Counted from the stretch's first letter, positions 1-16,449 are shown. The stretch: 64,000 nt of DNA from Escherichia coli (GCF_016903815.1 NZ_CP069973.1), one strand, 5' to 3'. The notes: generated from the sequence alone by a model not told the origin. Numbers and translations are program-made.

Positions 1-510
1 AGACCTGCTGATGGCAAGGTCGACACGCAATCTGCCGGTCCGCCATCAAAAAGCGCGGTGAACGCCTGTGCGGATAACGGAACATCGCGCTCATTTTGCA
101 GTAGCACTTGCGTTAACCGCTGAGCGATGACGTCTTTATGCGCTTCGGCTTGCTCAAGTGTTAATCCGGTCGTCAGCAGCCGCATGCCACAAGAAATATC
201 GGTGCCGATGGCGGCGGGAATGACTAAATCCGGCGTTGAGGCCACCACCGCGCCAACGGGGACGCCATTGCCGGGATGAAAATCTGGCGTCGCGCACGTC
301 TGGCGCACATAACCTGGGTGGTCTGGTAGCTTCGCTTCTGCAAAATCAAGCAGTTGTGTTACTGCTTTTTCTTCCAGCGGCAGTTCGTCCGGCAGCAGTA
401 CGCGGGCACTGGCACCTGATGGACGAGATAATGAAACAATATTGTTGGCGCGGGAAAGTTGGATCCCTTTGCGCAGAAAGGCTTTATCAAGCCTTGAAAG
501 ATGATGCATA
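1..510 (-). CDS. RtcB-family RNA ligase-like protein, N-terminal part (gene continues beyond window start)
   Basis: Manual minus-strand translation from ATG at 510-508 gives MHHLSRLDKAFLRKG...TPDFHPGNGVPVGAVVA...IPAAIGTDISCGMRLL, matching the conserved RtcB metal-binding motifs (PDxHxGxG ... IPAAVGxDIxCGM). Not in the ORF track as a minus-strand ORF because it is truncated by the window edge. Confidence 0.55.
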
Positions 511-760
511 ACGCTGTCCTGAAATATAGACGTTAAACAACCCCCTGTATTGCGAGGGTAATTTTGTCTTTCCGGTCAGCAGCCAGCAAAAGGGAAAGAA
601 AACGCGCGTAGTGTATGTGGCGATAGCAAGTTTTACAAGTGGTAAATCTGGCTTATTGTTAAAGAGGAATTATCTTTTGTGAAGTCTTTTAAGGCCATGA
701 CTCATTCAATTTAACCGGACATAGATAATATATAACATAGGGTATATAAATTTATCATTG

Positions 761-892
761 TATACTTGTCATAATTCAAGTTGCATGTGCTGCATCGATG
801 TTCGCTCACTCAGGTCACTTACTTATGTAAGCTTCTGGAAATTCATTATTTGTTCCCTTCCTGCAACTTGACTTATTTAGAGTATATTCATG
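761..892. repeat. ERIC/IRU intergenic repeat, copy 1
   Basis: Contains caagttgcatgtgctgc...ttcgctcac...agtcacttacttatgtaagct, the reverse complement of the ERIC core (AAGCTTACATAAGTAAGTGACTGGGGTGAGCG); about 85-90% identical by eye to the second copy at 46690-46816. Confidence 0.8.
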
Positions 893-1098
893 TATATGAA
901 TAATATTCTTGCAATAATAGCTTTAAAGTATTGCATGCGGATAACTGAGGTGAAATTCCTGTTTTAGGATTATTGTCACTTTATTTTCCTGGTTAGACAT
1001 ATAGCTGACTGGTTTGTTTATTTGAATTATGATATTCATTAGTGCTACTGTTTTTTATAAAATAATTTTTGAATTGTTATTTTTTCACGGACGGAATT

Positions 1099-2004
1099 AT
1101 GCGAGGAAAAATACCTAAAACGGAGCTGCTGGTGACTTTTGAGGTCGTCGCACGTTATGAAAGTTATACCAGAGCGGCAGAGGAGTTAGCGTTAACCCAA
1201 AGTGCAGTATTCAGACAAGTAAGTGCGCTGGAGGAATTTTTACATACTCCGTTATTTTCACACTCTAAAAAACGCATTTTTCTTAATGATGCAGGGAAGT
1301 ATTACCTGGGGATAGTAAAAGAAACATTAAATAAGCTGGAACGCGATACCAATACCATTATGACCTGGCAGCCTACGGTTCAGGTTATTGAACTTGCCGT
1401 GAATCCTACGTTTAGTACCCACTGGTTAATCCCAAATTTACATGAATTCACAAAGTTACATCCCGATATTATTGTTAATATTCACTCTTTAGCTAATAAC
1501 GGCGATTTTCTTAATCGGGAGTACGATGCTGTCATTATGCGCGAAAATTTTTGCGCGCCCTGGGCGGAAGTAGAATATCTCTTTGATGAGGAGATTTTGC
1601 CGGTATGCAGCGGCAGTTTGCTTGCAATGTCCGATCAAAAACTGTCAGTGGCAGAACTGCTTACAGAGTTACCACTTCTGCATCAAAGTACCCGTATTAC
1701 TGGCTGGGAAGAGTGGTTTGCCTTATCTGGCGTTAGCAGTCCGCTGGTCAACAACGGACCACGTTTCGATTTGCTTTCAATGCTGATTGCCGCCGTGCGC
1801 TCTAATCTCGGCGTGGCGCTGTTACCACGGTTCGCTATTCAACATGATTTGGATAGTGGCGATATGGTGATTCCCTGTGATGTGCCTATTCGTACCGGTA
1901 ATCGTTTTATTATGACGTGGCAGGAAGAGAAGTCTGACTCACCGCACTTGCAGCAATTTCGTGAATGGTTGCTGGCGAAATCGGTTGTACCGCAGGAGAT
2001 GTAA
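1099..2004 (+). CDS. LysR-type transcriptional regulator (likely regulator of the adjacent glutamate-fermentation operon)
   Basis: ORF 1069-2004; N-terminal HTH signature (TFEVVARYESYTRAAEELALTQSAVFRQVSALE) places the likely start at ATG 1099 (MRGKIPK). C-terminal LysR substrate-binding domain length (about 300 aa). Confidence 0.8.
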   Translation: MRGKIPKTELLVTFEVVARYESYTRAAEELALTQSAVFRQVSALEEFLHTPLFSHSKKRIFLNDAGKYYLGIVKETLNKLERDTNTIMTWQPTVQVIELAVNPTFSTHWLIPNLHEFTKLHPDIIVNIHSLANNGDFLNREYDAVIMRENFCAPWAEVEYLFDEEILPVCSGSLLAMSDQKLSVAELLTELPLLHQSTRITGWEEWFALSGVSSPLVNNGPRFDLLSMLIAAVRSNLGVALLPRFAIQHDLDSGDMVIPCDVPIRTGNRFIMTWQEEKSDSPHLQQFREWLLAKSVVPQEM

Positions 2005-2006
2005 AA

Positions 2007-2034
2007 CCTGCGCCTGGCGGGATGCCAGGCGCAG
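2007..2034. terminator. Bidirectional rho-independent-like hairpin between the convergent LysR and adenosyltransferase genes
   Basis: cctgcgcctggc-gggat-gccaggcgcagg perfect GC-rich inverted repeat directly after the LysR stop (2002-2004) and after the end of the minus-strand operon (2038). Confidence 0.6.
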
Positions 2035-2037
2035 TTA

Positions 2038-2640
2038 TTACCAGTCGATACCCGGCTGGGCCTGAATGCCGTTATCAAAAGCATGTTTGACGGGGCGGAT
2101 TTCGCTGACCGTATCCGCCATTTTTAATATCTGACTGTGGCAACCGCGTCCGGTGACAATGACACTTTGTTGTGCCGGGCGGTTTTGCAGAGAAGCGATC
2201 ACTTCTTCGGTATCCAGATAATGGTAAGCCAGCATATAGGTCAGCTCATCAAGCACCACTAAGTCGTAACGCTTGTCAGCCAGCATCCGTTTGCTTTCCG
2301 ACCAGACCTCTTTCGCCGCGTCGATATCCGCTTGCCGGTTCTGTGTCTCCCAGGTAAAACCGGTTCCCATAATATGAAACTCAACCCCCAGCGGCTGGAG
2401 AAGGTTGTATTCGCCGTTGTCCCATTGCCCCTTGATGTACTGCGCAACCCCCACCGTTTTGCCATGACCCACCGCGCGCGTCACAGTACCAAACGCGGCA
2501 GTGGATTTCCCTTTGCCATTGCCGGTGAAAACAATCAAAATCCCTTTTTTCTCTATCGCCGCCGCGATGCGCGTATCGACCTGTTCCTTCAATTTCTGCT
2601 GGCGCTGCACATGCCGTTCAGTTGAAATTCGCGCTTCCAT
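2038..2640 (-). CDS. cob(I)alamin adenosyltransferase (BtuR/CobA/CobO family)
   Basis: 200 aa; P-loop GNGKGKST and overall similarity to BtuR/CobO; last gene of the B12-dependent glutamate mutase operon. Confidence 0.8.
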   Translation of the reverse strand: MEARISTERHVQRQQKLKEQVDTRIAAAIEKKGILIVFTGNGKGKSTAAFGTVTRAVGHGKTVGVAQYIKGQWDNGEYNLLQPLGVEFHIMGTGFTWETQNRQADIDAAKEVWSESKRMLADKRYDLVVLDELTYMLAYHYLDTEEVIASLQNRPAQQSVIVTGRGCHSQILKMADTVSEIRPVKHAFDNGIQAQPGIDW

Positions 2641-2649
2641 TCATTTTCC

Positions 2650-4302
2650 TTAATGTCCCGCAGGGCAACTGGCGCAGCGGTGTTGCTGCTCAAACTGACT
2701 AAAGAAATTATTGCCTTTATCATCTACCAGGATGAATGCGGGCAGATTTTCCACTTCCATCATCCACACCGCTTCCATACCCAGCTCCGGGTATTCCAGG
2801 CAACGCAGACTTTTGACATATTCTTGCGCCAGTAACGCAGCTGCACCGCCAATACTACCCAGATTGAAGCCACCATGTTTGTGACAGGCATCGGTGACCT
2901 GCTGGCTGCGGTTACCTTTCGATAACATCACCAGACTGCCGCCAGCCGCCTGGAAGGTATCGACATAACCGTCCATTCGACCGCCCGTGGTTGGACCCAG
3001 TGAACCGCAGGCCATGTTCTCCGGTGTTTTCGCCGGGCCAGCGTAATAGACAATATGATGCTTCAGGTAATCCGGCATCGGTTCGCCGCTATCCAGCCGC
3101 GCTTTTATTTTGGCGTGGGCGATATCGCGCGCCACTACGATGGGACCATTTAACGACACGCGGGTGCCTACCGGTAATCTGGCGAGATCCTGCATCACGT
3201 CACGCAACGGACGGTTTAGATCCAGTTGTACATGTGGCGCGTGATTTTCTTCCCGCAGTGAGGCTGGAATATATTGCCCCGGATTGTGTTCGAGTTTTTC
3301 CAGCCAGATACCGTGCTTGTTAATTTTTGCTTTGATATTGCGATCGGCAGAACAGGAGAGCGCCATAGCTATCGGGCAAGAGCCACCGTGACGCGGCAGA
3401 CGAATGACGCGAATATCATGAGCGAAATATTTACCCCCAAATTGCGCACCAATACCAAATTGCTGACTGGCCTCGAGCAACACTTTTTCCAGCTCAATAT
3501 CACGGAATGCTTGTCCCTGCTCGTTTCCGCTGGTGGGCAAATTGTCGTAATATTTCGTTGAGGCCAGCTTGGCAACTTTTAAGGTTTGATCGGCTGAAAG
3601 CCCTCCGACGACAAAGGCGATGTGGTAAGGCGGGCAGGCAGCGGTGCCCAGCGATTTCATTTTTTCGATTAAAAATGCGGTCAGTTTTTCTGGTTGCAAT
3701 AAGGATTTGGTTTCCTGATAAAGTGCGGCTTTATTGGCGGAGCCGCCCCCTTTATTAACACAGAGAAAATGGTACTCATTACCAGCGACAGCGCTGATAT
3801 CAATCTGCGCCGGGAGATTGGTTTGCGTATTGACTTCGGTATACATATCCAGCGGCGCATTTTGTGAAAAGCGCAGATTATTTTCCTGGAAAGTACTGTA
3901 AATGCCTTTGCTTAAGGCTTCAGCGTCGTTACCTCCCGTCCATATCTGTTGCCCTTTACTGGCAACAATAGTTGCGGTGCCGGTATCCTGACAGTTGGGT
4001 AATATCCCTTTTGCTGAGACTTCAGCATTACGTAATAACTGCAACGCAACGTATTTATCATTACTACTGGCCTGCGGATCGTTAAGAATGCTGGCGACCT
4101 GTTGCAAATGAGCGGAACGTAAGAAAAAAGAGGCTTCATAAAATGCCTGCCGGGCAAGCAGCGTTAATGCTTCAGGAGCGATTTTTATCACTTCTTCGCC
4201 GTCTAATTCCGTTACTGTAATATGTTGATCGCTAATTAATGTATATTCTGTACCGTCTTTATTTTGTAGAAACGGTTCTTGCCAGATAAATGGTTTGGAC
4301 AT
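2650..4302 (-). CDS. fumD: Class I (Fe-S) fumarate hydratase family protein, predicted mesaconase/fumarase
   Basis: 550 aa, full-length FumA/FumB-like protein with conserved Cys ligands; sits in a methylaspartate-pathway operon where mesaconate hydration is the required step. The fumD name is from memory of the literature, not verified. Confidence 0.8.
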
Positions 4303-4409
4303 ATTTCACTTTTCACCTTAAACGTTAGTGTTACTTAATTGCCGTCTAACTTCATGATCCGGCTTATAAAAATGCGTAGTCATTGGCTTCTGATTGCTTA
4401 AGATCCCCC

Positions 4410-5690
4410 TCAGGGCAGAGCAACGTTCGATTCATTGGGTTTTAATGCTTTACCCCGACAACCCTCGCCGAAATGTTCGCCTTCCCACCGACTCACCATC
4501 GCAGCGCCCATTGCGTTGCTCATGACGTTTGTCGCGGAACGCCCCATATCAAGGAACGGATCAACGCCCATCAGCAAGATCAGCCCCGCTTCCGGAATAT
4601 TGAACTGGTTGAGCGTGGCGGCGATAACCACCATTGAGGCGCGTGGTACGCCAGCCATTCCTTTCGAGGTCAACATCAGGATCAACAGCATGGTGATTTG
4701 CTCACCGATGGATAAATGGATATTGCAGGCCTGGGCGATGAAAACTGTGGCGAAGGAGCAGTAGGCCATTGATCCAACGAGATTAAATGAGTAGCCAATG
4801 GGTAAGACAAAGCTGGCAATTTTGGGGGAAACGCCAAATTGCTCCAGTTTTTCAAGCGTTCCCGGAAAAGCCGCTTCAGAACTGGATGTGGTAAATGCCA
4901 GCAGGGCGGGTTCCGAAAGGGCGCGGGTCAGGCGTCTGATGCAGGGGCCGACATAAACGATGGCCAGACCGATAAGCAGCACCCAAAGTAATAACATGGT
5001 GAAATAAAATTCACCCATAAAGATCCCGGCGCTCACCATAACTGCCAGTCCTCGTTCAGCAATCAATGCTGAAATAGCAGCGAATACGGTCAGGGGAGCG
5101 AAGAGCATGACGTAGCCAGTGAGCTTTAACATGGCATGTGCCAGCGAATCTAAGGCGTGAACGATGGCGCTGCCTTTCTCGCCAATCGCCGTCAGGCTAC
5201 AGCCGAGGAAAATTGAGAACACCACGATTTGCAAAATTTCATTGTGCGCCATGGCATCGACAATGCTGGTGGGGAAAGCATGCGAAATAAATACTTTTAG
5301 CGTAAAGGGTTCTGACGCGACCACTCCGGTGGTTTCGGCTCCGTGTGCAACAAAATTAATTCCTGTGCCTGGCATGAAGAAATTTACTGTTATCAAGCCT
5401 AAGGCAATTGACAGCAATGAGGCGCAAATAAATAAAAAGAGTGTTTTAGAAAAAATACGACCAAGGGCTTTGGCATCTCCCATTTTAGCTATACCTACCA
5501 CCAGGGTAGAGGCCACTAACGGAGCGATAATCATTTTTATCAGTCGTAAGAAAATCGTCGTGAATATCGATATTTCTTGCGCATAGAGTTTTGCGGTTTC
5601 CGGTGAAGCAGTGTTATTGAGCACTACGCCGATAATCACTCCAAGTACCAGCGCCAAAAGAATCATCGTGGTTAAACTTATTTTCTTCAT
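4410..5690 (-). CDS. Dicarboxylate/amino acid:cation symporter (DAACS, GltP/DctA-like), probable glutamate or C5-dicarboxylate transporter
   Basis: ORF 4410-5711; multiple TM segments and DAACS family similarity. Start trimmed to ATG 5690 (MKKISLTT), which is preceded by a GGAGGA ribosome-binding site. Confidence 0.8.
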   Translation of the reverse strand: MKKISLTTMILLALVLGVIIGVVLNNTASPETAKLYAQEISIFTTIFLRLIKMIIAPLVASTLVVGIAKMGDAKALGRIFSKTLFLFICASLLSIALGLITVNFFMPGTGINFVAHGAETTGVVASEPFTLKVFISHAFPTSIVDAMAHNEILQIVVFSIFLGCSLTAIGEKGSAIVHALDSLAHAMLKLTGYVMLFAPLTVFAAISALIAERGLAVMVSAGIFMGEFYFTMLLLWVLLIGLAIVYVGPCIRRLTRALSEPALLAFTTSSSEAAFPGTLEKLEQFGVSPKIASFVLPIGYSFNLVGSMAYCSFATVFIAQACNIHLSIGEQITMLLILMLTSKGMAGVPRASMVVIAATLNQFNIPEAGLILLMGVDPFLDMGRSATNVMSNAMGAAMVSRWEGEHFGEGCRGKALKPNESNVALP

Positions 5691-5850
5691 TTTTTCCTCC
5701 ATCAGGTGCACGGCGATAAATCAGAATCAGGAGAAGTAGATGCCTGAATAGAGATTCAGGCACCTACCTGCTATTACAACCTTACAAATAGCTGAAGTGT
5801 TGAACTGCAATAAGTGACGGGATGTCAGTTGGCTAAAAGTATTCGGATTT

Positions 5851-6168
5851 TTACAAATCGAAACTCATATTTAATAAAGGTGCATGTTGCTGTGCACCAT
5901 AGACATCATTGTCACCTACATTCCCGGAGATAATATCTCGTGGCATGACGATTTTTACTGCGTTAGAAGGATCAAACCAGACAATACGGTGAATAAAGTC
6001 AGGTTCAACATGATATAAGCGCGCAATCAGTTCTGGGGTTAATTGCCCTGATGATTTAACTCGCTCATAGTTTTCTTTCGTTTTAAATAAAATATCTAAA
6101 ACCAGTTCGTAAGGTCCGGCATTTTTCGAACGAATGACTTGCGCCAGTGAGACAATTGACTGTTTCAT
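5851..6168 (-). CDS. Small conserved protein of unknown function (DUF4387-like), partner of the upstream DUF1446 gene
   Basis: 105 aa ORF whose start overlaps the stop of the 456-aa ORF by 4 nt (translational coupling); family assignment is from memory. Confidence 0.6.
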   Translation of the reverse strand: MKQSIVSLAQVIRSKNAGPYELVLDILFKTKENYERVKSSGQLTPELIARLYHVEPDFIHRIVWFDPSNAVKIVMPRDIISGNVGDNDVYGAQQHAPLLNMSFDL

Positions 6169-7535
6169 GCCTGAACTCCTTCTGGCGTCACCTGTTCAAT
6201 ATGGAAATCAAAACGCAGAGCGTCGTTGGCTTCAATCAGGTGATATATGGAAAATTCGTATACTGGCCCGCCCTGGATATCAGAAGGGGAGAACGGGAAC
6301 GCCAGGTTGCCTGCGGTAGCGATGCGGTTTTCATAGCCGTAGTGCAGCATAGTAGAGCGCACCAGCGAGCAAACGCTGTTGGCAATCTCCTGGGTCGGCG
6401 CAACTACATCTAGGACAATCCCCAGCTCATGCCCGGCAGTTTGCATCGGTTCATGGTCGCCCATCACCCCGTTTTTGCCGTACAGGTGGAAATTGATGTG
6501 AATGCTGTCATCGTCGAGCGACAGGTTACGCGAAACGCTGGTTTTGACTTCATCGATGATTTTATCGATCCCGGCGATCATGATCGGGTCGCGCGTTCCG
6601 GCGATGGTCAGACAGCGGAAGCCCACCCGTCGCGCACCTTCCAGTTTCAGGGCATACGGCGTTTCTTCATGCTTAGAACCGCTGACGTACACTTCGCTGT
6701 CATTGACCGCTTTAAATGTGCAGCCTTTCAGGTTCAACACGCCGCCAGGTCCAGGCAGGAAGTAGGGATCGGATTTCTCATACAGTGTGTGTGCAGCCGC
6801 TGACGTTTCGGTAAATTTACGCTTCGGATTAAATGTCTTCAGCGTAAAGCCGTTGTCATCAATGATGCCCATCGCACAGTCAGAGCCTGAGCCGGGCGTT
6901 GCGGCGATTGCCGCGCATTCAAGGATTTTCCCACAATGCAGCGCCAGACCTTCATCAAAGCCTTGCATGATCGGAAGCGCAGCAAAGCAGGCCGGGTCGT
7001 AAGCGCGCCCGCCCAGCACCACTTGCGCGCCTTCTTTCAGCGCCTGCTGGAAGGGTTCGATGCCCATTTGCGCGACGATATACGTACTTTCGTCAATCGC
7101 GTCGTGGGTTAACGGCGGGACAAAATCCAGCGCCGTGATTTTGCCGTTATCCAGCGCCTGGTGGACGATGGCTTTGTCAACGTCTGCCGGGATCAGCGCC
7201 ATCGAGAACGAGAGGTGCTCTTCCCGGGCAATCTCATGAATTATTTCTCGGCACCACTCCAGGTGTGGTGCGGCACCAGAACCGCCAGCCGTTCCGATCA
7301 CCACCGGTATATTATTTTGCACGCCTGCGGTGATCATATAGCGCAGATCGCGCTTGACCCCTGCGCGATCGGTAAACGGTTTGCCTGCCCCGAGGTAGTG
7401 GGGGCCTGGATCGGAAGAGCCTGCATCAACGGCGATCAGATCGGGCGATTCTGCCATCGCTTTGCGGAAGCTCTCTTCCGGGAATCCATACCCGAGGATT
7501 GCCGTTGGCGATAAGACTTTAAAAGAACGAGCCAT
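6165..7535 (-). CDS. AtuA-like / DUF1446 family protein of unknown function
   Basis: 456 aa ORF, operon-internal between methylaspartate ammonia-lyase and the transporter; resembles the AtuA (acyclic terpene utilisation) DUF1446 family by length and N-terminal motif. No characterised catalytic function known to me. Confidence 0.6.
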   Translation of the reverse strand: MARSFKVLSPTAILGYGFPEESFRKAMAESPDLIAVDAGSSDPGPHYLGAGKPFTDRAGVKRDLRYMITAGVQNNIPVVIGTAGGSGAAPHLEWCREIIHEIAREEHLSFSMALIPADVDKAIVHQALDNGKITALDFVPPLTHDAIDESTYIVAQMGIEPFQQALKEGAQVVLGGRAYDPACFAALPIMQGFDEGLALHCGKILECAAIAATPGSGSDCAMGIIDDNGFTLKTFNPKRKFTETSAAAHTLYEKSDPYFLPGPGGVLNLKGCTFKAVNDSEVYVSGSKHEETPYALKLEGARRVGFRCLTIAGTRDPIMIAGIDKIIDEVKTSVSRNLSLDDDSIHINFHLYGKNGVMGDHEPMQTAGHELGIVLDVVAPTQEIANSVCSLVRSTMLHYGYENRIATAGNLAFPFSPSDIQGGPVYEFSIYHLIEANDALRFDFHIEQVTPEGVQA

Positions 7536-7538
7536 TTG

Positions 7539-8780
7539 TTAATCCTTAGCCTGCAACAGCGCGATAGTACGATTCATTTCGTTGAAGACGATATCGAGGC
7601 CTTCGTCAAAGCCCATCCCTGGTTTTACCAGCATACGCATGGGGCGAGCGGCAAGGGCGACGTGGACACAGGTGCGGGCACTGACATCAGTTTCATTGCA
7701 GGTGCCGCCCTGGTACGCTTCCATGTTGTGGCTGTTGCAATAAAGAACTGCATCGACGATGTTGTGAATACTGCCCAGATCCGGGGTTTTGATTTGCACC
7801 ATGTGGCAACTGGCGGCATCGGTGAAATCAACAATATCCTGGTAGGTGTTACACCATTCATCGGCCACTAGTTTCACGCCGGAACCGAGGCGCGTCAGCT
7901 CTTTGGTAATCGCGGTCAGCAGGCGAATTTGATCGGGCTTGTTACCGGCATCGACCGGACCTTCAATGTAGAGCGGCAGGCCTTGCGCTTCTTTTTCCAG
8001 GCTGGCGATGTATTGCGCACAGCGAAGCGGATCCATATCGAAGATCAGACCGATAGTGCCGTATACATCGATGTGCAGGGTAGGGTGGTAGCGTGCGCTG
8101 GTGCGCTTGCTCAGAATACGATCCGACAGCCAGCGGACATATTCGCGCAGTTTTTCACCTTTAAAGCCCAGTTTCTCTTCGACGTTATTAATCAGTGCAT
8201 GGGGCAGCACGTCGATGCCCTTAAGGATCATCTTATCGACGGCGATATATCGATCGTCGCCGCTCTGACCAAATAATGGAATGGATTCCGCCACGCGTGG
8301 CAACTGCCATTCATCACAGACCACTTCAGTTTTCAGACGGCCGGTTGCCAGCGCGGTAGCATCAAGCAGCGCCTGTGATAATCCGTAGCGCACGGCGGTA
8401 TGCAGCAAGTTGCCGTCAATACGCAATTTGTCGAAGAAACGGGCATTCGGCAGGAAAGTATCCACATCGCGGCCTACCAGTAATGGCTTGATATGGTCGT
8501 TGAGGAACGGAATAAAGTGCTCCGCGAGGAACAGTGGATCGCGACCACCTGCCCCGGAATACTGTACGGCAGCACAGTCACCTACGGCGACCGCGCCGTT
8601 TTCCAGAATCAACTGTACCGATACGCACTCCCCGGCCTGACGTACGGCGTTAAACCCCTGTGTTACTGGCTCCCCGGTATAAAAAAAACCGTCGTGACCC
8701 GCTCCGTTTTTTATCGCCTGCTGGTCATCGAAATAGAATGAGGAGTAGCCAGCGGTAAAAAGGGCCTGTTTTATTTTCAT
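7539..8780 (-). CDS. 3-methylaspartate ammonia-lyase (methylaspartase, enolase superfamily)
   Basis: 413 aa, classic methylaspartase length and enolase-superfamily architecture; immediately downstream of the glutamate mutase genes. Confidence 0.85.
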   Translation of the reverse strand: MKIKQALFTAGYSSFYFDDQQAIKNGAGHDGFFYTGEPVTQGFNAVRQAGECVSVQLILENGAVAVGDCAAVQYSGAGGRDPLFLAEHFIPFLNDHIKPLLVGRDVDTFLPNARFFDKLRIDGNLLHTAVRYGLSQALLDATALATGRLKTEVVCDEWQLPRVAESIPLFGQSGDDRYIAVDKMILKGIDVLPHALINNVEEKLGFKGEKLREYVRWLSDRILSKRTSARYHPTLHIDVYGTIGLIFDMDPLRCAQYIASLEKEAQGLPLYIEGPVDAGNKPDQIRLLTAITKELTRLGSGVKLVADEWCNTYQDIVDFTDAASCHMVQIKTPDLGSIHNIVDAVLYCNSHNMEAYQGGTCNETDVSARTCVHVALAARPMRMLVKPGMGFDEGLDIVFNEMNRTIALLQAKD

Positions 8781-10225
8781 TATGGTCTTCCTATTAATTT
8801 ACTGTGGGATACAGCATTGATGTCATCTACAACCATCTGGAATGTCGGTTGGCGTCCTTCAAAGCGTGCGCGTTCCGCAACGTAATCGTGGTGGAGGTCG
8901 AGAATATCTTTTGGCAATGGAACGGCTCCGGCTTCCAGTACGCGTATCGCGCCGGTGTTGTCACGGACCGGAAGAATTTTGCCCGCGTTACACGCGGCTG
9001 GTGCAAATGGCACATCCAGTACGCCCGCTTCAAATGCCAGCACCGTACCGCGCGCAATATCACCATTACCCAGTTCGAACACTTTATTCAGTACCGCGCG
9101 AACCTCGCTCTTAATCAGTTCAATTTCCAGTTCAACCGCAGGGCACGGCGGGAATTTCTGCTCATTGACCATGTTGAGCATCTGGCGGGAGGCTTTCAGC
9201 CCCTGAATGTTGGCAGCGGCAGTCGGGATTCCCCAGGCTTCGTGAGGGCTTTTGGTGATGACTTTGGTGGCACCAGACATCCCCGCGACGGCTGCACCCC
9301 AGGAGATAATGGCGAACGCTTTCGATTCGTCTTCCGGAAAGCCGCCCATCCACTGGTGAAATACGGTACTTAATTCATAGTCGGTATAGCCATAGTTCTG
9401 AAAGTATTCGTGTGCAAGTTCACGCAGAGACTGGATCGCCGCGACATCCTGCGTCAGGCTGCCGACCTGTCCATAACCAACGGTGATAGATTTCACACCC
9501 TGTTCCAGCGCCAGTAATCCTTCGATTATCGCGATAGAGTGCGAGATAAACGGCGGGATCAGCGTACCCGTTAGTGGGCCAAATGGTTCGCGGTTGATGC
9601 GGATCCCGTGTTCTTCATACATCCCCATTAAACGGTCGCAGTACTGCCAGTCGCGGATCGATTTTTCCAGCGTTACGCGCTTGGCATACGGAATATTGTA
9701 GGAAATGCCGCCGCCTTCATAACTGGTAAAGCCGCTGGCCATCGAGATTTCAGCCAGCAGACGCGCATCTGGCGTGCCGTGGCGGATCTGTAGCGGTTTT
9801 TGCAGAGTTTCGGTGAGGCGACGGCAAGCTGCGACGCCGTGGTTAACGACCGGTAAACCGTTCAGTTTAGAGGTTCCGGCTTCGATGGATTTTTTAATCC
9901 CTACAGCAGCTTCTTCGTACCGATTCAGACGGGTATATGCATCGATGGTGCTCGGCAGCAGATCGCACTCTTCTTGTAGTGTTTTCAGTAGTTCGATGTG
10001 TTCGTCCATCAGCGCCACGCCTGCGCGCGGTTGGCTAAGAGTTTTACCTTCCTTGTCTGCTTTCAGCAGGGCAAGAGAGAAGCGTTTATGCTCAGGAATG
10101 GTTTGTTGGTATTTAACGCCATCTTCAAAGTTTTCAACATCCTTGCCGGTTTCCCAGGTTTTCAATACCTGTTGCCGCTCGGTCATGAATTCGTTATGGG
10201 TTAATTTCTTATTTCGAAGTTCCAT
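8780..10225 (-). CDS. Glutamate mutase epsilon (large catalytic) subunit, MutE/GlmE
   Basis: 481 aa, TIM-barrel large subunit length; operon context with the S and L components. Confidence 0.85.
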   Translation of the reverse strand: MELRNKKLTHNEFMTERQQVLKTWETGKDVENFEDGVKYQQTIPEHKRFSLALLKADKEGKTLSQPRAGVALMDEHIELLKTLQEECDLLPSTIDAYTRLNRYEEAAVGIKKSIEAGTSKLNGLPVVNHGVAACRRLTETLQKPLQIRHGTPDARLLAEISMASGFTSYEGGGISYNIPYAKRVTLEKSIRDWQYCDRLMGMYEEHGIRINREPFGPLTGTLIPPFISHSIAIIEGLLALEQGVKSITVGYGQVGSLTQDVAAIQSLRELAHEYFQNYGYTDYELSTVFHQWMGGFPEDESKAFAIISWGAAVAGMSGATKVITKSPHEAWGIPTAAANIQGLKASRQMLNMVNEQKFPPCPAVELEIELIKSEVRAVLNKVFELGNGDIARGTVLAFEAGVLDVPFAPAACNAGKILPVRDNTGAIRVLEAGAVPLPKDILDLHHDYVAERARFEGRQPTFQMVVDDINAVSHSKLIGRP

Positions 10226-10243
10226 TGATTGCAGCCTTAATTG

Positions 10244-11632
10244 TTATAGGGTTAAGCATTGAATACTGGTGCGCGCGGCGGCCAGTGGATCGACTCTGGC
10301 GACGTTTGCCAGCAGTGGTAATAGCCCCCGGGAATCGCGGTAATATTCAAATTCGGTCGGTAAGAGAATGCGTTTACCGTCGTCGTTTAACTCGCGGTAT
10401 TTCAACCAGTGATGCATATCGAACTGACTGGCACGCGAGAGCCATCCGCCGGAACCCACGACTTTACGCACGGTTGTCAGGTCACGTCCCATCTGTAAAT
10501 CGACATTGCCGACGCAGGTGCAGACCTCTTTTTTGGTGCCCGCATGTCTTTCGGTGGCATAACCCACACACAGTCCGGCCAGGACGGTATCGAAATATTT
10601 TTCTTCTGCATTCGCGGGTAAGTAGTCGGGATGAGCGACTAGATGACGGAGGTAATGATAAAAAGCGTCCAGCTGTGCGGGTTGCTGAGCAAAATTCACA
10701 TTGACTAACTCTTTCGCACTTTCACCAACCACCATTGCCGAGACGCGCATTCCCAGATCGCCTTCCACCGTCCGTTTCACGAAGGGTTCCGGTACGCCAT
10801 GTAAAACAGTGTCGGGCGAGAGCGTGTTGGCACAGGCTGAATAGACATCGGTGGTTGCGCCGCCCATGTCGATCAGCATGAACTCCTTCCAGCTGTGATC
10901 GACGTTACTGATTGCCTTAACCAGTTCAAAGACCGTCCATGGTGTCGGCATTGGTTCTTCGCCTGTTTTATCAACAATGACATCCAGCCCTTTCCCTTTA
11001 ACGATGCGTTTAAGGAATATGTCGCAGATAGCCTGGCGTGCAGCTAAAGGGTTCGGATGGTCAAGATCGGGCAGAACGTTGTCGACGATGGTCAGGTCTT
11101 TATGCCCTAGGATCTCCTGCACCTCGTCCTGAATATCCCGGTTTCCGGCATAAATAATGGCGCAGTCGAGTTTGGATTCTGCCAGCACACGGGCGTTATT
11201 CAGGCCGTAGCTTTCTTCTCCGCCGTCGGTGCCGCCGGTGAACAAGAGAATATCGGGCTGCGTTTCTTCCAGTGCCTGGATATCACGGCGGTTCAGCTTG
11301 TAGGCGTAATATTGCGCAATTTTAGCCCCCGCAGAGTGAGCGGTTACTTTCGCGGTTTCCAGGGTGATAGAAGGCACCAATCCCATTGCGGCAACCGCCA
11401 GCCCACCTTTGGCAGAGGAGGAATACTTCAATGTAACCTCACCGCTGTTAAACAGGGGGAGGGCATTATCTACGTTTAACACCAGGTTCAGGCTGGAGAA
11501 AAACCCCTTCGCCAGATGATGGGTGGTGGTTGGGGTCAGTACGTGGTTAACCAACGTTAACGCGTCCCCCTCCCGGGCGAAGAGGGCTGCTTTGGTCCAC
11601 GTCGAACCAATATCGACAGAGACGATTTGCAT
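10244..11632 (-). CDS. Glutamate mutase L component (MutL/GlmL, reactivating chaperone-like ATPase)
   Basis: 462 aa ORF between the S and E subunits, the typical glmS-glmL-glmE order; ASKHA-like N-terminus ([18 protein letters not shown]). Confidence 0.8.
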   Translation of the reverse strand: MQIVSVDIGSTWTKAALFAREGDALTLVNHVLTPTTTHHLAKGFFSSLNLVLNVDNALPLFNSGEVTLKYSSSAKGGLAVAAMGLVPSITLETAKVTAHSAGAKIAQYYAYKLNRRDIQALEETQPDILLFTGGTDGGEESYGLNNARVLAESKLDCAIIYAGNRDIQDEVQEILGHKDLTIVDNVLPDLDHPNPLAARQAICDIFLKRIVKGKGLDVIVDKTGEEPMPTPWTVFELVKAISNVDHSWKEFMLIDMGGATTDVYSACANTLSPDTVLHGVPEPFVKRTVEGDLGMRVSAMVVGESAKELVNVNFAQQPAQLDAFYHYLRHLVAHPDYLPANAEEKYFDTVLAGLCVGYATERHAGTKKEVCTCVGNVDLQMGRDLTTVRKVVGSGGWLSRASQFDMHHWLKYRELNDDGKRILLPTEFEYYRDSRGLLPLLANVARVDPLAAARTSIQCLTL

Positions 11633-12081
11633 CAGATTGCCTCTTCAAGAATGCGAGTATCAACGTTATGACGTTGGTTGATATCGTGGGCCATCAGCTG
11701 ACAAACATCTTCTAAGTCATGACTTGGGGAAAAGACGCGATCAAATCCCATCTCTTTGAACTTGGTTTCCACGTCAGCGAAGTCATGTTTTCCGACCACC
11801 AGGTTACCGCCCACATAGAGCAGGATGTTACCCAGCCCACGCTCGATGCAGCGTTCGCGCATGCCCAGACAATCGATATCGCCATGCCCATAGATAGAGG
11901 AGACGACAATCGCGTCAGCACCAGTTTCAATGGCAGCATCAATATATTCGTCCTGGCTGACCATTACGCCCAGATTAATAACTCTGAAGTCATGGTTGCT
12001 AAAAACGCGGTCCAGAACTTTATTGCCTACTGCATGGCAGTCCGCGCCAATAACGCCAATCACAAGTGTTGCTTTCTTCAT
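11632..12081 (-). CDS. Glutamate mutase sigma (B12-binding) subunit, MutS/GlmS
   Basis: ORF 11632-12144; cobalamin-binding DxHxxG motif ([11 protein letters not shown]). Start trimmed to ATG 12081 ([12 protein letters not shown]), preceded by AAGGA, giving 149 aa. Confidence 0.8.
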
Positions 12082-12627
12082 GGGTAATCCTTTGTAAGAC
12101 AGAGAGTAAAATAAGTTACACACGTCGTATTTATGGCCGCTCATAACGGCACAGGTTTAATATCACAGGAGTGTCTTTATCTGACCGTAATGTTGCAATT
12201 GATCTATTTTCAAAATGTCTTTCGGGAAATGATTGTTTAAAGTGTGTTTTCAAATTCTCATTTTAATTCAGTGTGTTATGTCAACTAATGTCATGAATGT
12301 TAAATTTTTAAAATTAACTTGATTTGATGTATTGAGATAATTGTGATCAACTTCTAATTTGCATTTTTGTGACGTGGCTTTAGCCATGAGTAAATGCATT
12401 TCATAAAAGTTAAGTCGAATTTCACTGCAATTCATCTCTGCTTAATGTAAAAATAATGTTGAAAATAACAAATAATTAATGATTCATGCGAATTATGACC
12501 TTTGTTAGCTCTTTTGATTTTTCGTAAAAAAGAAAAGTACATGAAGGTGCTACCAGTACGAGTAACGTTAATCAAAAGTTTTATTACGTCTGGCAATAAC
12601 GCAGGCCATTTTCGCGACTGGGTGGAT

Positions 12628-13050
12628 TTAATCAGTATAATCCTCATACAATAGGTCAGGATTTACTGAACCGTTAACGGGGATTTGGTGTTGAAATTTA
12701 GAAATGGCGGAGTCAATTAATGAAGACAATATCGGAAAAATGACAGTGTCAGAATTAATTTCAATTAATCCTTCTCGTTGTTGACCAAAAAAGATATTTA
12801 TCTTGATTTCATTTGTACTACGGCAATCAATATGCAGTAATTTTTGATCGCTGAGATTTTCTGTTTCATAAATGTTTTTGGCGATAGTCGGATGTATTGA
12901 TGCCAGACATCTGCTCAGATAAGCCAGATCCTTTAGGGAACACCCCGCTGAGTAGAGGATGTCAGAGAATTTTTGTGTGTCAACTGTTGTCTCTGAAGCG
13001 TATGTTGCATTGACAGGAAGGGTGTTGAAAGAGATTTGAGATGGGATCAT
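12628..13050 (-). CDS. Hypothetical protein, no recognisable family (orphan, AT-rich)
   Basis: 140 aa ORF in a strongly AT-rich block, co-directional with and 80 bp downstream of the 314-aa ORF; no motif I can assign. Confidence 0.5.
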   Translation of the reverse strand: MIPSQISFNTLPVNATYASETTVDTQKFSDILYSAGCSLKDLAYLSRCLASIHPTIAKNIYETENLSDQKLLHIDCRSTNEIKINIFFGQQREGLIEINSDTVIFPILSSLIDSAISKFQHQIPVNGSVNPDLLYEDYTD

Positions 13051-13130
13051 TATTTAAATCTTTCCGTGAGTAATAAAAATTAATCCCCGGGCATTGTTTG
13101 GCAATATTTGCCACAGGGAATATATAAAAA

Positions 13131-14075
13131 TTAAAGTATTTGATTGGCATCGGTTAACTGATCAATAACCAGTGCCAGATTGGTAAACATTTTGAAAAAG
13201 CGATACTGGCTCGGAATATCTCTTTCAAAGACGAAACATTCAATGTCATTGTTTGAAAAATAAAGGACTAGTGTTGCTGATTCGTCAGGAAAAATATGGA
13301 AATATATCTGGTTACCAGAAGGAGGATAGTCCAGAAGAAGGGTATCTTTGCCCGTCACATACCTGTTGTGGTCGTGGATGCTGCGCTCACACTTCATCAG
13401 AGGTGTCATGATACTCATGTATTCATCTGATGTTAATATATTAAAATCACCATCCATTTTAAAGAAACGATAAAGTAACAGTACATCCTCTTGCGTAACC
13501 GGTTCGTTTGTTTTTAGAGGGAAATAAGTGGGAACCAGAAGATGAGGTTCTAATCTATTTTGTTGAGCGCTATAACTAAATTTGAACATAAATTCCGGAT
13601 CGCTCATCAATTGAGCGACATAATTATGCCTGGCTTCAAAAATTTTAACTTTTATCAGGTTAAATAAGTCTGTTTCGTCATCCTGTATTAAAAGACATTG
13701 ACCATAGCAGCCAGGCTTTTTTTCATTATAAGCAGAAACGGTTATTCTGTCAGGAGTGTCAACGTTATATCCAAAAGCCAGATAGTGACCTTCCTCATCG
13801 AGATTTGTTTCCAGGTTATTTAAATTCATCACATGAAGTGTTTGCAATGCTGATTCAATGAGCTGTTGACTCTCTGAGGTAAATGTTTCGCGCTGCGTTG
13901 TATAAAGTGTATCGATTCCAACGACTATCCGATGTGGATCAAGGATGGCGGCAATCATCTTTATTACCTGCACAGTCATGGGTGATGTCATTGATTCTTT
14001 ATCTGTTTTTAGAGGATCATTAGATGGCCAACCTGAGAAGCGATTGACAGCAGAACTGATATTATCAGGACTCAT
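13131..14075 (-). CDS. Hypothetical protein, no recognisable family (orphan, AT-rich)
   Basis: 314 aa ORF, uninterrupted, in AT-rich DNA between the glutamate operon and the cydA regulatory region; codon usage atypical for the E. coli core. Confidence 0.55.
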   Translation of the reverse strand: MSPDNISSAVNRFSGWPSNDPLKTDKESMTSPMTVQVIKMIAAILDPHRIVVGIDTLYTTQRETFTSESQQLIESALQTLHVMNLNNLETNLDEEGHYLAFGYNVDTPDRITVSAYNEKKPGCYGQCLLIQDDETDLFNLIKVKIFEARHNYVAQLMSDPEFMFKFSYSAQQNRLEPHLLVPTYFPLKTNEPVTQEDVLLLYRFFKMDGDFNILTSDEYMSIMTPLMKCERSIHDHNRYVTGKDTLLLDYPPSGNQIYFHIFPDESATLVLYFSNNDIECFVFERDIPSQYRFFKMFTNLALVIDQLTDANQIL

Positions 14076-14880
14076 AGCAGCAACCTCATTGTAATCAAGC
14101 GAGGCGCTGAGCGTACTCGGCTATAGAAAAACTAACTTGCAAAAATCGCTCATTTTTCATTTATCAGGCGAAAGTGGTCTCTGTTCACTCAGAAACAATC
14201 ACTCCCGCTAAGTCATACCTGTTTCATCGATACATTTAAGTGATTATTACTAATGAAACAATAACATAACGGGCTTACGGCCGGTGCTCATAAAGGCAAC
14301 AATCAATTAACTTTGATAAAAATATGTTATGTAAAATAGCAACAAATTGGCTAATCTAATCAATTGGTATTATAAAAAGTGGATAGGGCGGTTCTGTTAA
14401 ATAAAACACTGGTTTTTTATCTATACCTTTTCATTGTAATAATTGTGTTGCATAAATATTTCACAATAAATTAACAATAAAATCACCAATGATCTATGGT
14501 TTATACATAATTAACATATTTGGTTGGTTTTGATATAAATCAATTTTTAATTCTTGAAAAAAATCTGCAAAACACGATAAATTGTCGTAGATCAAATTGG
14601 TGAGATCGTGACAATTTCGCTATAAATTGATCACTGTCGAAAAATGCAAATTTGCTCAATAAAAACCTGTTTATTGTAAGGATTTTGCGGCGTAATATAA
14701 TTACGGGATCAATTTGGTTTATTCATTAACATATTTGTAACTTTTTTATCATTGTCTTTTCCTCTTTTGATGAAATGGCAACGATAGAGGCGAGCAAATA
14801 ATTTTGTATTGGGGCATGCGTGTGACCCTTTCTAACGGGGTTCACTCTCGGAGTCTTCATGCGATGAGCAAGGAGTCATG
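14076..14880 (+). promoter_or_regulatory. Long AT-rich cydA upstream control region (multiple promoters, ArcA/FNR/H-NS regulated in K-12)
   Basis: About 800 bp non-coding AT-rich DNA directly upstream of cydA, as expected for the cydAB control region; individual sites not resolved by eye. Confidence 0.6.
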
Positions 14881-16449
14881 ATGTTAGATATAGTCGAACT
14901 GTCGCGCTTACAGTTTGCCTTGACCGCGATGTACCACTTCCTTTTTGTGCCACTGACGCTCGGTATGGCGTTCCTGCTGGCCATTATGGAAACGGTCTAC
15001 GTCCTTTCCGGCAAACAGATTTATAAAGATATGACCAAGTTCTGGGGCAAGTTGTTTGGTATCAACTTCGCTCTGGGTGTGGCTACCGGTCTGACTATGG
15101 AGTTCCAGTTCGGGACTAACTGGTCTTACTATTCCCACTATGTAGGGGATATCTTCGGTGCGCCGCTGGCAATCGAAGGTCTAATGGCCTTCTTCCTCGA
15201 ATCCACCTTTGTAGGTCTGTTCTTCTTCGGTTGGGATCGTCTGGGTAAAGTTCAGCATATGTGTGTCACTTGGCTGGTGGCGCTCGGTTCAAACCTGTCC
15301 GCACTGTGGATTCTGGTTGCGAACGGCTGGATGCAAAACCCAATCGCGTCCGATTTCAACTTTGAAACTATGCGTATGGAGATGGTGAGCTTCTCCGAGC
15401 TGGTGCTTAACCCGGTTGCTCAGGTGAAATTCGTTCACACTGTAGCGTCTGGTTATGTGACTGGCGCGATGTTCATCCTCGGTATCAGCGCATGGTATAT
15501 GCTGAAAGGTCGTGACTTCGCCTTCGCTAAACGCTCCTTTGCTATCGCTGCCAGCTTCGGTATGGCTGCCGTTCTGTCTGTTATTGTTCTGGGTGATGAA
15601 TCTGGTTACGAAATGGGCGACGTGCAGAAAACCAAACTGGCTGCTATTGAAGCCGAGTGGGAAACGCAACCTGCGCCTGCTGCCTTTACTCTGTTCGGCA
15701 TTCCTGATCAGGAAGAGGAGACGAACAAATTTGCGATCCAGATCCCTTACGCGCTGGGCATCATTGCAACGCGTTCCGTGGATACTCCAGTTATCGGCCT
15801 GAAAGAACTGATGGTGCAGCATGAAGAACGCATTCGTAACGGGATGAAGGCGTACTCTCTGCTCGAACAACTGCGTTCTGGTTCTACCGACCAGGCGGTT
15901 CGTGACCAGTTCAATAGCATGAAGAAAGACCTCGGTTACGGTCTGCTGCTGAAACGCTATACGCCAAACGTGGCTGATGCGACTGAAGCGCAGATTCAAC
16001 AGGCAACCAAAGACTCCATTCCGCGTGTAGCGCCGCTGTACTTCGCGTTCCGTATCATGGTGGCGTGTGGCTTCCTGCTGCTGGCAATCATCGCGCTCTC
16101 TTTCTGGAGTGTCATCCGCAACCGCATTGGCGAGAAAAAATGGCTGCTGCGCGCCGCGCTGTACGGTATTCCGCTGCCGTGGATTGCTGTAGAAGCGGGC
16201 TGGTTCGTGGCTGAATATGGCCGCCAACCGTGGGCTATCGGTGAAGTGCTGCCGACAGCTGTGGCGAACTCGTCACTGACCGCAGGCGATCTCATCTTCT
16301 CAATGGTGCTGATTTGCGGCCTGTATACCCTGTTCCTGGTGGCAGAATTGTTCTTAATGTTCAAGTTTGCACGCCTCGGCCCAAGCAGCCTGAAAACCGG
16401 TCGCTATCACTTTGAGCAGTCTTCCACGACTACTCAGCCGGCACGCTAA
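14881..16449 (+). CDS. cydA: Cytochrome bd-I ubiquinol oxidase subunit I
   Basis: Translation [28 protein letters not shown]... matches CydA; ORF track starts one Met earlier (14878). Confidence 0.97.

Follow-up and report, generated by a model that had tools for sequence, protein, structure and literature searches.

An accessory Escherichia coli operon that probably encodes the methylaspartate route of glutamate breakdown, with a candidate citramalate lyase

Can some strains of Escherichia coli take glutamate through the methylaspartate route to pyruvate and acetate, and if so, which gene products would cleave the (S)-citramalate formed on the way? The cluster concerned is already known as the "glutamate fermentation cluster" of Kronen and Berg (PLoS One 2015, PMC4682846), whose work on the mesaconase FumD left its DUF1446 and DUF4387 genes unassigned and called the fate of (S)-citramalate "unclear". 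We examined a copy of this cluster in 64,000 nucleotides of E. coli DNA (GCF_016903815.1, NZ_CP069973.1), referred to here as the window; positions are those of the window unless a locus handle precedes them. An initial annotation, made from the sequence without database searches, had read positions 1099-12144 as a complete B12-dependent glutamate fermentation operon with its own regulator and adenosyltransferase, and had rightly pointed to its description in work on FumD. This locus is very probably an accessory chromosomal operon that breaks glutamate down by the methylaspartate route. Our main addition to the known cluster is an identity for the two "unknown" genes, which we assign by orthology as a predicted citramalate lyase, CmlAB, whose activity would close the pathway.

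The segment contains ten open reading frames (ORFs) between 1099 and 12144, one on the plus strand followed by nine consecutive ones on the minus strand, with positions and strands as first noted. RefSeq calls the same ten, as LysR, cobO, class I fumarate hydratase, symporter, DUF4387, AtuA-family, mal, mutase E, glmL and glmS. The proteins were searched against NCBIfam profiles, each score being set against the curated cut-off of its model, and the features of the segment are as follows.

1099..2004, plus strand: LysR-family regulator, 301 amino acids (aa), GcvA-like; NCBIfam GcvA 219 bits, below the cut-off of 288; RefSeq start 1099
2008..2034, between the strands: G+C-rich hairpin, candidate bidirectional terminator; 11-bp stem with 9 G-C pairs, between convergent stops
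2038..2640, minus strand: cobO, CobA/CobO/BtuR-type ATP:cob(I)alamin adenosyltransferase; NF004637 296 against a cut-off of 185, TIGR00708 247 against 168
2650..4302, minus strand: fumD, class I (Fe-S) fumarase-family mesaconase/fumarase; NF011921 1280 bits against 1060
4410..5690, minus strand: DAACS (SDF family) symporter; DctA 314 (cut-off 513) and GltP 303 (cut-off 638), both below
5851..6168, minus strand: cmlB, DUF4387, predicted citramalate lyase small subunit; PF14330 at E 2.9e-39, PDB 9erq_B/9evf at E 5.2e-57 over residues 1-104
6165..7535, minus strand: cmlA, AtuA-family (DUF1446), predicted citramalate lyase large subunit, 456 aa; PF07287 at E 4e-19, 9ERQ chain A at E 1.7e-290
7539..8780, minus strand: mal, 3-methylaspartate ammonia-lyase; TIGR01502 544 against 286, PDB 1KKO at E 2.4e-269 over the full length, 1KCZ at E 1.9e-150
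8780..10225, minus strand: glmE, catalytic E subunit of glutamate (methylaspartate) mutase; TIGR01503 864 against 390, PDB 6H9E/1CB7 at E 1e-189 over the full length
10244..11632, minus strand: glmL (mutL), accessory/reactivating protein of glutamate mutase; NF040745 509 against 475, TIGR01319 887 bits
11632..12081, minus strand: glmS, B12-binding S subunit of glutamate mutase, 149 aa; NF002612 251 against 110
12082..12627, minus strand: AT-rich upstream region, presumed operon promoter/operator; 546 bp, about 33% G+C

Six of the proteins (GlmS, GlmL, GlmE, Mal, the class I fumarase and CobA/CobO) exceed the cut-offs of specific NCBIfam models, and S, E and Mal also match solved structures, which bears out the initial naming of glutamate mutase S/L/E, methylaspartase, a class I fumarase-family enzyme and an adenosyltransferase. 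In GlmS the DxHxxG cobalamin-binding motif is kept, as GADCHAVG aligned to GSDCHAVG of Clostridium, and GlmL belongs to proteins whose role is that of a reactivating chaperone of the mutase (PMC4682846). Membership of the large ORFs in another family, such as methylmalonyl-CoA mutase, would have refuted the initial reading. This identity is ruled out: GlmE matches only the mutase E family among the NCBIfam models, and the one link of GlmS to methylmalonyl-CoA mutase is a match at E 1.4e-7 that stems from the common B12-binding domain.

The fumD gene is clustered with the glm and mal genes, and family scores set its product apart from FumA and FumB, the FumA (926 against 1105) and FumB-type (922 against 1094) models both falling below their own cut-offs. 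It is identical at 542 of 550 positions (98.5%) to the FumD-locus protein of O157:H7 TW14359, and FumD of another O157:H7 strain, ATCC 700728, is a measured mesaconase/fumarase with a 2-3-fold preference for mesaconate (PMC4682846). The symporter was correctly placed in the DAACS family, is by score neither a DctA nor a GltP orthologue, and has the same gene 3' of cmlB in Yersinia and Aeromonas. It is presumed to take up glutamate; a C4/C5-dicarboxylate substrate is also possible. Its start is at 5690 in RefSeq and at 5711 in the longest ORF.

Two details of the operon's layout needed revision. The start of glmS is at 12081, not at 12144, as judged from four lines of evidence that agree: the family model matches the 170-aa ORF only from residue 22 on, an AAGGA Shine-Dalgarno sequence lies 5' of 12081, the protein is 148-149 aa long in RefSeq and in the Yersinia and Aeromonas orthologues, and the 149-aa GlmS aligns Met1-to-Met1 with Clostridium GlmS (E 2.8e-49). 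The description of the genes as overlapping or near-abutting holds for the first six, with overlaps of 1 nucleotide (nt) for glmS/glmL, 1 nt for glmE/mal and 4 nt for cmlA/cmlB and spacers of 18 nt between glmL and glmE and 3 nt between mal and cmlA, and again for fumD and cobO (9 nt). It does not extend to the wider spacers of 160 nt before the symporter gene and 107 nt before fumD, which could contain internal promoters.

CmlA and CmlB have no NCBIfam match, and Pfam places them in the AtuA (PF07287) and DUF4387 (PF14330) families. A PDB sequence search found both to be about 92% identical, over their full length, to the proteins of entries 9ERQ and 9EVF, whose chains the depositors named "Citramalate lyase, subunit A (cmlA)" and "subunit B (cmlB)". 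A 2026 preprint involving Berg's laboratory (bioRxiv 10.64898/2026.01.16.699985) uses "Cml from Raoultella planticola" and has citramalate cleaved "directly" to pyruvate and acetate. In that work R. planticola cmlAB gave an E. coli acetyl-CoA auxotroph mesaconate-dependent growth, which disappeared when the plasmid was cured, and leucine carried the expected isotope label (bioRxiv 10.64898/2026.01.16.699985). We infer that the 9ERQ and 9EVF proteins derive from R. planticola. By orthology to these proteins, the two "unknown" genes of the E. coli operon are predicted to encode CmlAB citramalate lyase. The initial description of the pathway as "complete" is correct given that the unknown pair is CmlA and CmlB, although it could not have been justified from the knowledge then cited, the 2015 paper having found no lyase activity.

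No Cit-family protein is encoded in the operon according to NCBIfam, neither CitDEF nor CitC, CitX or CitG. The operon is thus a member of the methylaspartate pathway by function, with a last step that lies outside the classical (CitDEF, EC 4.1.3.22/4.1.3.6) family. One search returned 6,816 CmlA homologues at E <= 1e-5, with 60-70% identity in distant sources. Several of them are misnamed "3-methylaspartate ammonia-lyase", an error previously pointed out by Kronen and Berg (PMC4682846).

If CmlAB belongs with the mutase and the ammonia-lyase, the genes should travel together. We compared seven loci with CmlA homologues, from Riflebacteria, Lentisphaerae, Yersinia enterocolitica, Aeromonas, an Accumulibacter contig, a metagenome contig and one further genome. 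The order glmS-mutL-glmE-mal-AtuA-DUF4387 is kept in six of the seven, with insertions in the Lentisphaerae copy, and CmlA identity is 62-66% in the Riflebacteria, Lentisphaerae and metagenome loci. Such linkage across phyla is what would be expected if CmlAB shares a pathway with the mutase and the ammonia-lyase. The exception is the Accumulibacter contig (L006 9001-10679), where cmlA-cmlB stand alone between a glycoside hydrolase gene and rpoC, with no glutamate mutase, methylaspartase or fumarase gene near them, so that in some organisms the lyase may have a place in other pathways. In Aeromonas the cluster retains the mutase genes, mal, cmlAB and cobO, but the 21 kb inspected there contain no fumarase gene. 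Clusters from outside the proteobacteria carry a GntR-type regulator, not LysR.

The non-enteric clusters also contain a gene for a protein of about 310-318 aa directly 3' of DUF4387 (L004 10712-11665; L007 10677-11618; L010 11698-12654; L005 14269-15201). The L004 and L007 copies are 62% identical and have a Walker A motif (GAEGxGKST), with no family beyond P-loop. This protein, which has no E. coli counterpart, could be an accessory ATPase of the pathway.

The enzyme steps from glutamate to pyruvate and acetate are assigned by orthology, and the operon would work as follows. The DAACS symporter would import glutamate, which adenosylcobalamin-dependent GlmS/GlmE would rearrange to (2S,3S)-3-methylaspartate, with GlmL keeping the mutase active and CobO making adenosylcobalamin from salvaged corrinoid. 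Mal would then release NH3 from methylaspartate to give mesaconate, FumD would convert mesaconate to (S)-citramalate, and CmlAB would split (S)-citramalate into pyruvate and acetate, the whole being controlled by the convergent LysR protein. By atom balance the overall route would be redox-neutral, and E. coli pyruvate formate-lyase with Pta and AckA might yield one ATP for each glutamate. The assignment of CmlAB would leave no enzyme missing and offers a gene-level answer to the 2015 puzzle over the fate of citramalate.

How CmlAB might cleave citramalate is suggested by the titles of the PDB entries, "Citramalate lyase - AMPPNP - citramalate complex" and "Citramalate lyase - ADP - pyruvate complex", which indicate that CmlAB binds an adenine nucleotide together with its substrate or product. 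We tentatively consider, as the less probable reading of these complexes, that CmlAB is an ATP-using C-C lyase that phosphorylates the C4 carboxylate and releases pyruvate and acetyl phosphate, from which acetate kinase would recover the ATP. In that case an acetate enolate would be activated without a thioester or an acyl-carrier protein, and AtuA-family proteins (in terpene degradation and elsewhere) would act alike. The nucleotide could equally be an allosteric or structural ligand, since the preprint has citramalate cleaved "directly" and mentions no ATP. The CmlA fold has no solved relative. Its invariant glycine-rich loops (residues 39-49, 81-88 and 214-217) coincide with low-confidence parts of the AlphaFold2 model, 39-49 and 214-217 being the least confident, and these loops are probably mobile.

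Set beside known systems, the operon combines shared and substituted parts. The O157:H7 cluster of Kronen and Berg, whose Figure 5 draws LysR, GltP, FumD, CobA and the DUF1446 gene (PMC4682846), has the same locus and gene order; on the left side of the LysR gene, the strain studied here has kept mngRAB and has an additional rtcB-family gene. The clusters of clostridia (C. tetanomorphum, C. tetani and others) have the same mutase S/E, MutL/GlmL and methylaspartase and the same chemistry to pyruvate and acetate. They differ in their mesaconase, the two-subunit MesAB, in their lyase, which is of the CitDEF type with an acyl-carrier subunit and CitCXG, and in their GntR regulator (PMC4682846); in place of these the E. 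coli cluster has a fused FumD, CmlAB and a LysR regulator, together with an in-operon adenosyltransferase and a symporter. The label "clostridial-type" in the initial annotation therefore fits the homologous mutase and methylaspartase but not the steps where FumD and CmlAB replace MesAB and CitDEF. The haloarchaeal methylaspartate cycle likewise makes mesaconate via glutamate mutase and methylaspartase, but passes it to mesaconyl-CoA for acetate assimilation and has no mesaconase or citramalate lyase (PMC4682846).

CmlA shares Pfam family PF07287 with AtuA, although its profile match is weak (69 bits). The reaction proposed for AtuA, release of acetate from a tertiary beta-hydroxy acid, would be analogous to citramalate cleavage. 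The AtuA homologue of Thauera is about 615 aa long and acts on a CoA ester, whereas CmlA has 456 aa, a separate DUF4387 partner and a free acid as its predicted substrate. CmlAB would be the first functional handle on the AtuA/DUF1446 and DUF4387 family, with its roughly 6,800 homologues, many of them misannotated as methylaspartate ammonia-lyase.

How widely is this operon carried? Counting as carriers those complete E. coli genomes in which 80% or more of the segment aligns at 98-100% identity, 1117 of 5426 (20.6%) carry it, nearly always as a single chromosomal copy, and there are only about 20 partial copies of the 11-kb segment. Carriers include the O157:H7, O145 and O55:H7 lineages and many clinical isolates, and window 1-14500 is 100% identical to many complete E. 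coli chromosomes, for example that of strain AR_0015. About a fifth of E. coli strains would thus have the genetic means to convert glutamate, which is abundant in the gut, to pyruvate, acetate and ammonia when corrinoids are available. Kronen and Berg had found the cluster in 26.5% of E. coli and in 90.6% of O157:H7 strains (PMC4682846).

The operon was said to be missing from K-12, and this is the case: there mngB is followed directly by cydA. In our strain 15.5 kb replaces 470 bp of K-12, an insertion that begins 1029 bp to the left of the window, ends at 14504 and contains the rtcB-family gene, the LysR gene, the nine-gene cluster and two orphan genes. By blastn the right junction with the K-12-like backbone (the cydA upstream region) is at about 14504/14505. 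O157:H7 TW14359 matches from window 1081 rightwards at 98.2-98.4% DNA identity and with the same gene order, so the conserved module spans about 1081-14504. The ORFs placed initially at 1099-12144 are all present, but glmS starts short of the upper limit and the E. coli island extends well past it.

TW14359 has neither mngR, mngA and mngB nor the rtcB gene, so its LysR gene adjoins sucD. The mngRAB locus is missing in O157:H7 (L003 3335-4000) and kept in K-12 and in our strain, which makes the sucD-cydA interval a variable hotspot with three states. Backbone identity to K-12, which is 94-96% further out, falls to 74.5% in the terminal 110 bp of mngB (L001 4861-4970, beyond the left edge of the window) and to 82% in window 14505-14922. 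Because the backbone next to the junctions is far more diverged from K-12 than its surroundings, the pattern suggests that the island spreads among lineages together with its flanks by homologous recombination.

The LysR gene lies as initially described, on the plus strand at 1099..2004 and facing the minus-strand cluster. Its product matches the GcvA-like model over the full length, orthologues with HTH_1 and LysR_substrate domains adjoin the operon in Aeromonas (82% identity) and Yersinia (64%), and it is presumed to be the dedicated regulator of the operon. The LysR stop at 2004 and the cobO stop at 2038 are separated by a 33-nt gap that holds the hairpin 2008-2034. The folding energy of this hairpin is -25.9 kcal/mol (z = -4.5) on one strand and -28.1 kcal/mol (z = -6.7) on the other, a stability that 0 of 200 shuffles reached. 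The initial call of a bidirectional terminator is thus well founded as to the hairpin, but the U-tracts are short (UUAUU and UUUU), so that we regard the function as plausible.

In the presumed promoter region, 12082-12627, no sigma-70 consensus match lies on the minus strand, and a scan of both AT-rich intergenic regions for inverted repeats that might serve as operators gave just AT-rich pairs too weak to interpret. Over 1-15000 there were 20 promoter-like sites against 24.9 in shuffles and 19 terminator-like sites against 16.2, no excess in either case, with only the 2008-2034 hairpin standing out. Rfam gave no match at E <= 1 over the same stretch, hence neither a cobalamin riboswitch nor any other known RNA precedes glmS. 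Under laboratory conditions this AT-rich region may be silenced.

Several observations weigh against glutamate breakdown as the working function of this operon. Since E. coli has no de novo B12 synthesis, corrinoids for the pathway must come from outside. The LysR gene converges on the distal end of the operon, some 10 kb away from the promoter region of glmS, and lacks the divergent layout that is usual, though not obligatory, for regulators of this family. The symporter scores, both below cut-off, slightly favour DctA over GltP and hence do not point to glutamate as the substrate. A literature search found the 2026 preprint that uses CmlAB but no primary description of the enzyme, so its assignment rests on orthology, the names given by the PDB depositors and that one preprint in which the enzyme was used. 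O157:H7 ATCC 700728, the only E. coli strain for which an attempt has been published, showed no anaerobic growth on glutamate and no stimulation by it, and methylaspartase and citramalate lyase activities were undetectable in its extracts (PMC4682846). The initial view that the operon defines the metabolic capability of the strain is therefore best read as a prediction.

Could these observations be better explained by another role? One alternative is that the cluster mainly catabolises external C5-dicarboxylates (mesaconate, citramalate or methylaspartate), with the symporter importing the dicarboxylate, FumD and CmlAB forming a B12-independent lower branch, and the mutase an optional, corrinoid-dependent upper branch. 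The symporter scores (DctA 314 against GltP 303 bits) would fit this, as would separate promoters in the 160-nt and 107-nt gaps, the occurrence of cmlAB without glm or mal in Accumulibacter, and the finding that FumA and CmlAB sufficed for mesaconate growth of engineered E. coli (bioRxiv 10.64898/2026.01.16.699985). We nevertheless consider it rather unlikely: glmS-L-E-mal-cmlAB form a contiguous block in six of the seven loci, the cluster ends in a gene for its own adenosyltransferase, and it is the fumarase that is absent in Aeromonas while mutase, mal, cmlAB and cobO are kept. That the operon in E. coli is instead a silent remnant of horizontal transfer that plays no physiological part today is very unlikely, even though no expression was seen in O157:H7 under any condition tried (PMC4682846), the flanks are AT-rich (33-38% G+C) as is typical of xenogeneically silenced DNA, and glmS has no consensus sigma-70 promoter upstream. 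All ten frames are intact and full length relative to their families, the 11-kb segment is conserved at 98-100% in genomes of diverse lineages with so few partial copies, and operon and regulator have stayed together in different genera, a pattern that fits purifying selection. Least probable of all, in our judgement, is that (S)-citramalate or mesaconate is secreted to act on the host or on competitors rather than for gain of carbon or energy. Kronen and Berg, having found no lyase activity, suggested citramalate secretion as a possibility, and noted an association with (opportunistic) pathogens (PMC4682846). Yet a citramalate lyase is predicted within the operon, its subunits translationally coupled and its first gene 3 nt after mal, and the missing lyase activity in 2015 is explained if the operon was not expressed at all, since methylaspartase was likewise undetectable. 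We therefore retain glutamate breakdown through the methylaspartate route as the best account of the operon.

Beyond the operon and its regulator, the island and its left flank contain the following features, with the module bounds as given by blastn of the K-12, AR_0015 and O157:H7 loci.

1081..14504, both strands: module common to this strain and O157:H7
12628-13050, minus strand: orphan gene, 140 aa; about 37% G+C
13131-14075, minus strand: orphan gene, 314 aa; about 37% G+C
1-509, continuing left of the window (L001 5112-6509), minus strand: rtcB-family gene, 465 aa; sits between mngB and the LysR gene

Both orphan genes accompany the operon in E. coli, including O157:H7, and are annotated as hypothetical in AR_0015 and O157:H7; they are absent beside the operon in Yersinia and Aeromonas and have no match in Pfam, NCBIfam, PADLOC or PHROGs. 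They are probably outside the pathway. We considered the 314-aa orphan as a counterpart of the P-loop protein of about 313 aa that follows DUF4387 elsewhere, and rejected it for lack of similarity (E 0.87). RefSeq locus tags skip one between glmS and the 140-aa orphan, from RS20855 to RS20865 (L001) and from RS03980 to RS03990 (L003), and a feature called earlier in 12082-12627 may since have been withdrawn. A 71-aa ORF at 12432-12647 is unannotated.

A defence-system or phage origin was considered for the orphans and the rtcB-family gene and set aside, as neither PADLOC nor PHROGs gave matches, the rtcB-family gene included. Only the C-terminal half of the rtcB-family product matches RtcB models (204 bits against a cut-off of 407). 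The gene has no rtcA or rtcR alongside, and a 57-bp remnant is all of it that stays in O157:H7.

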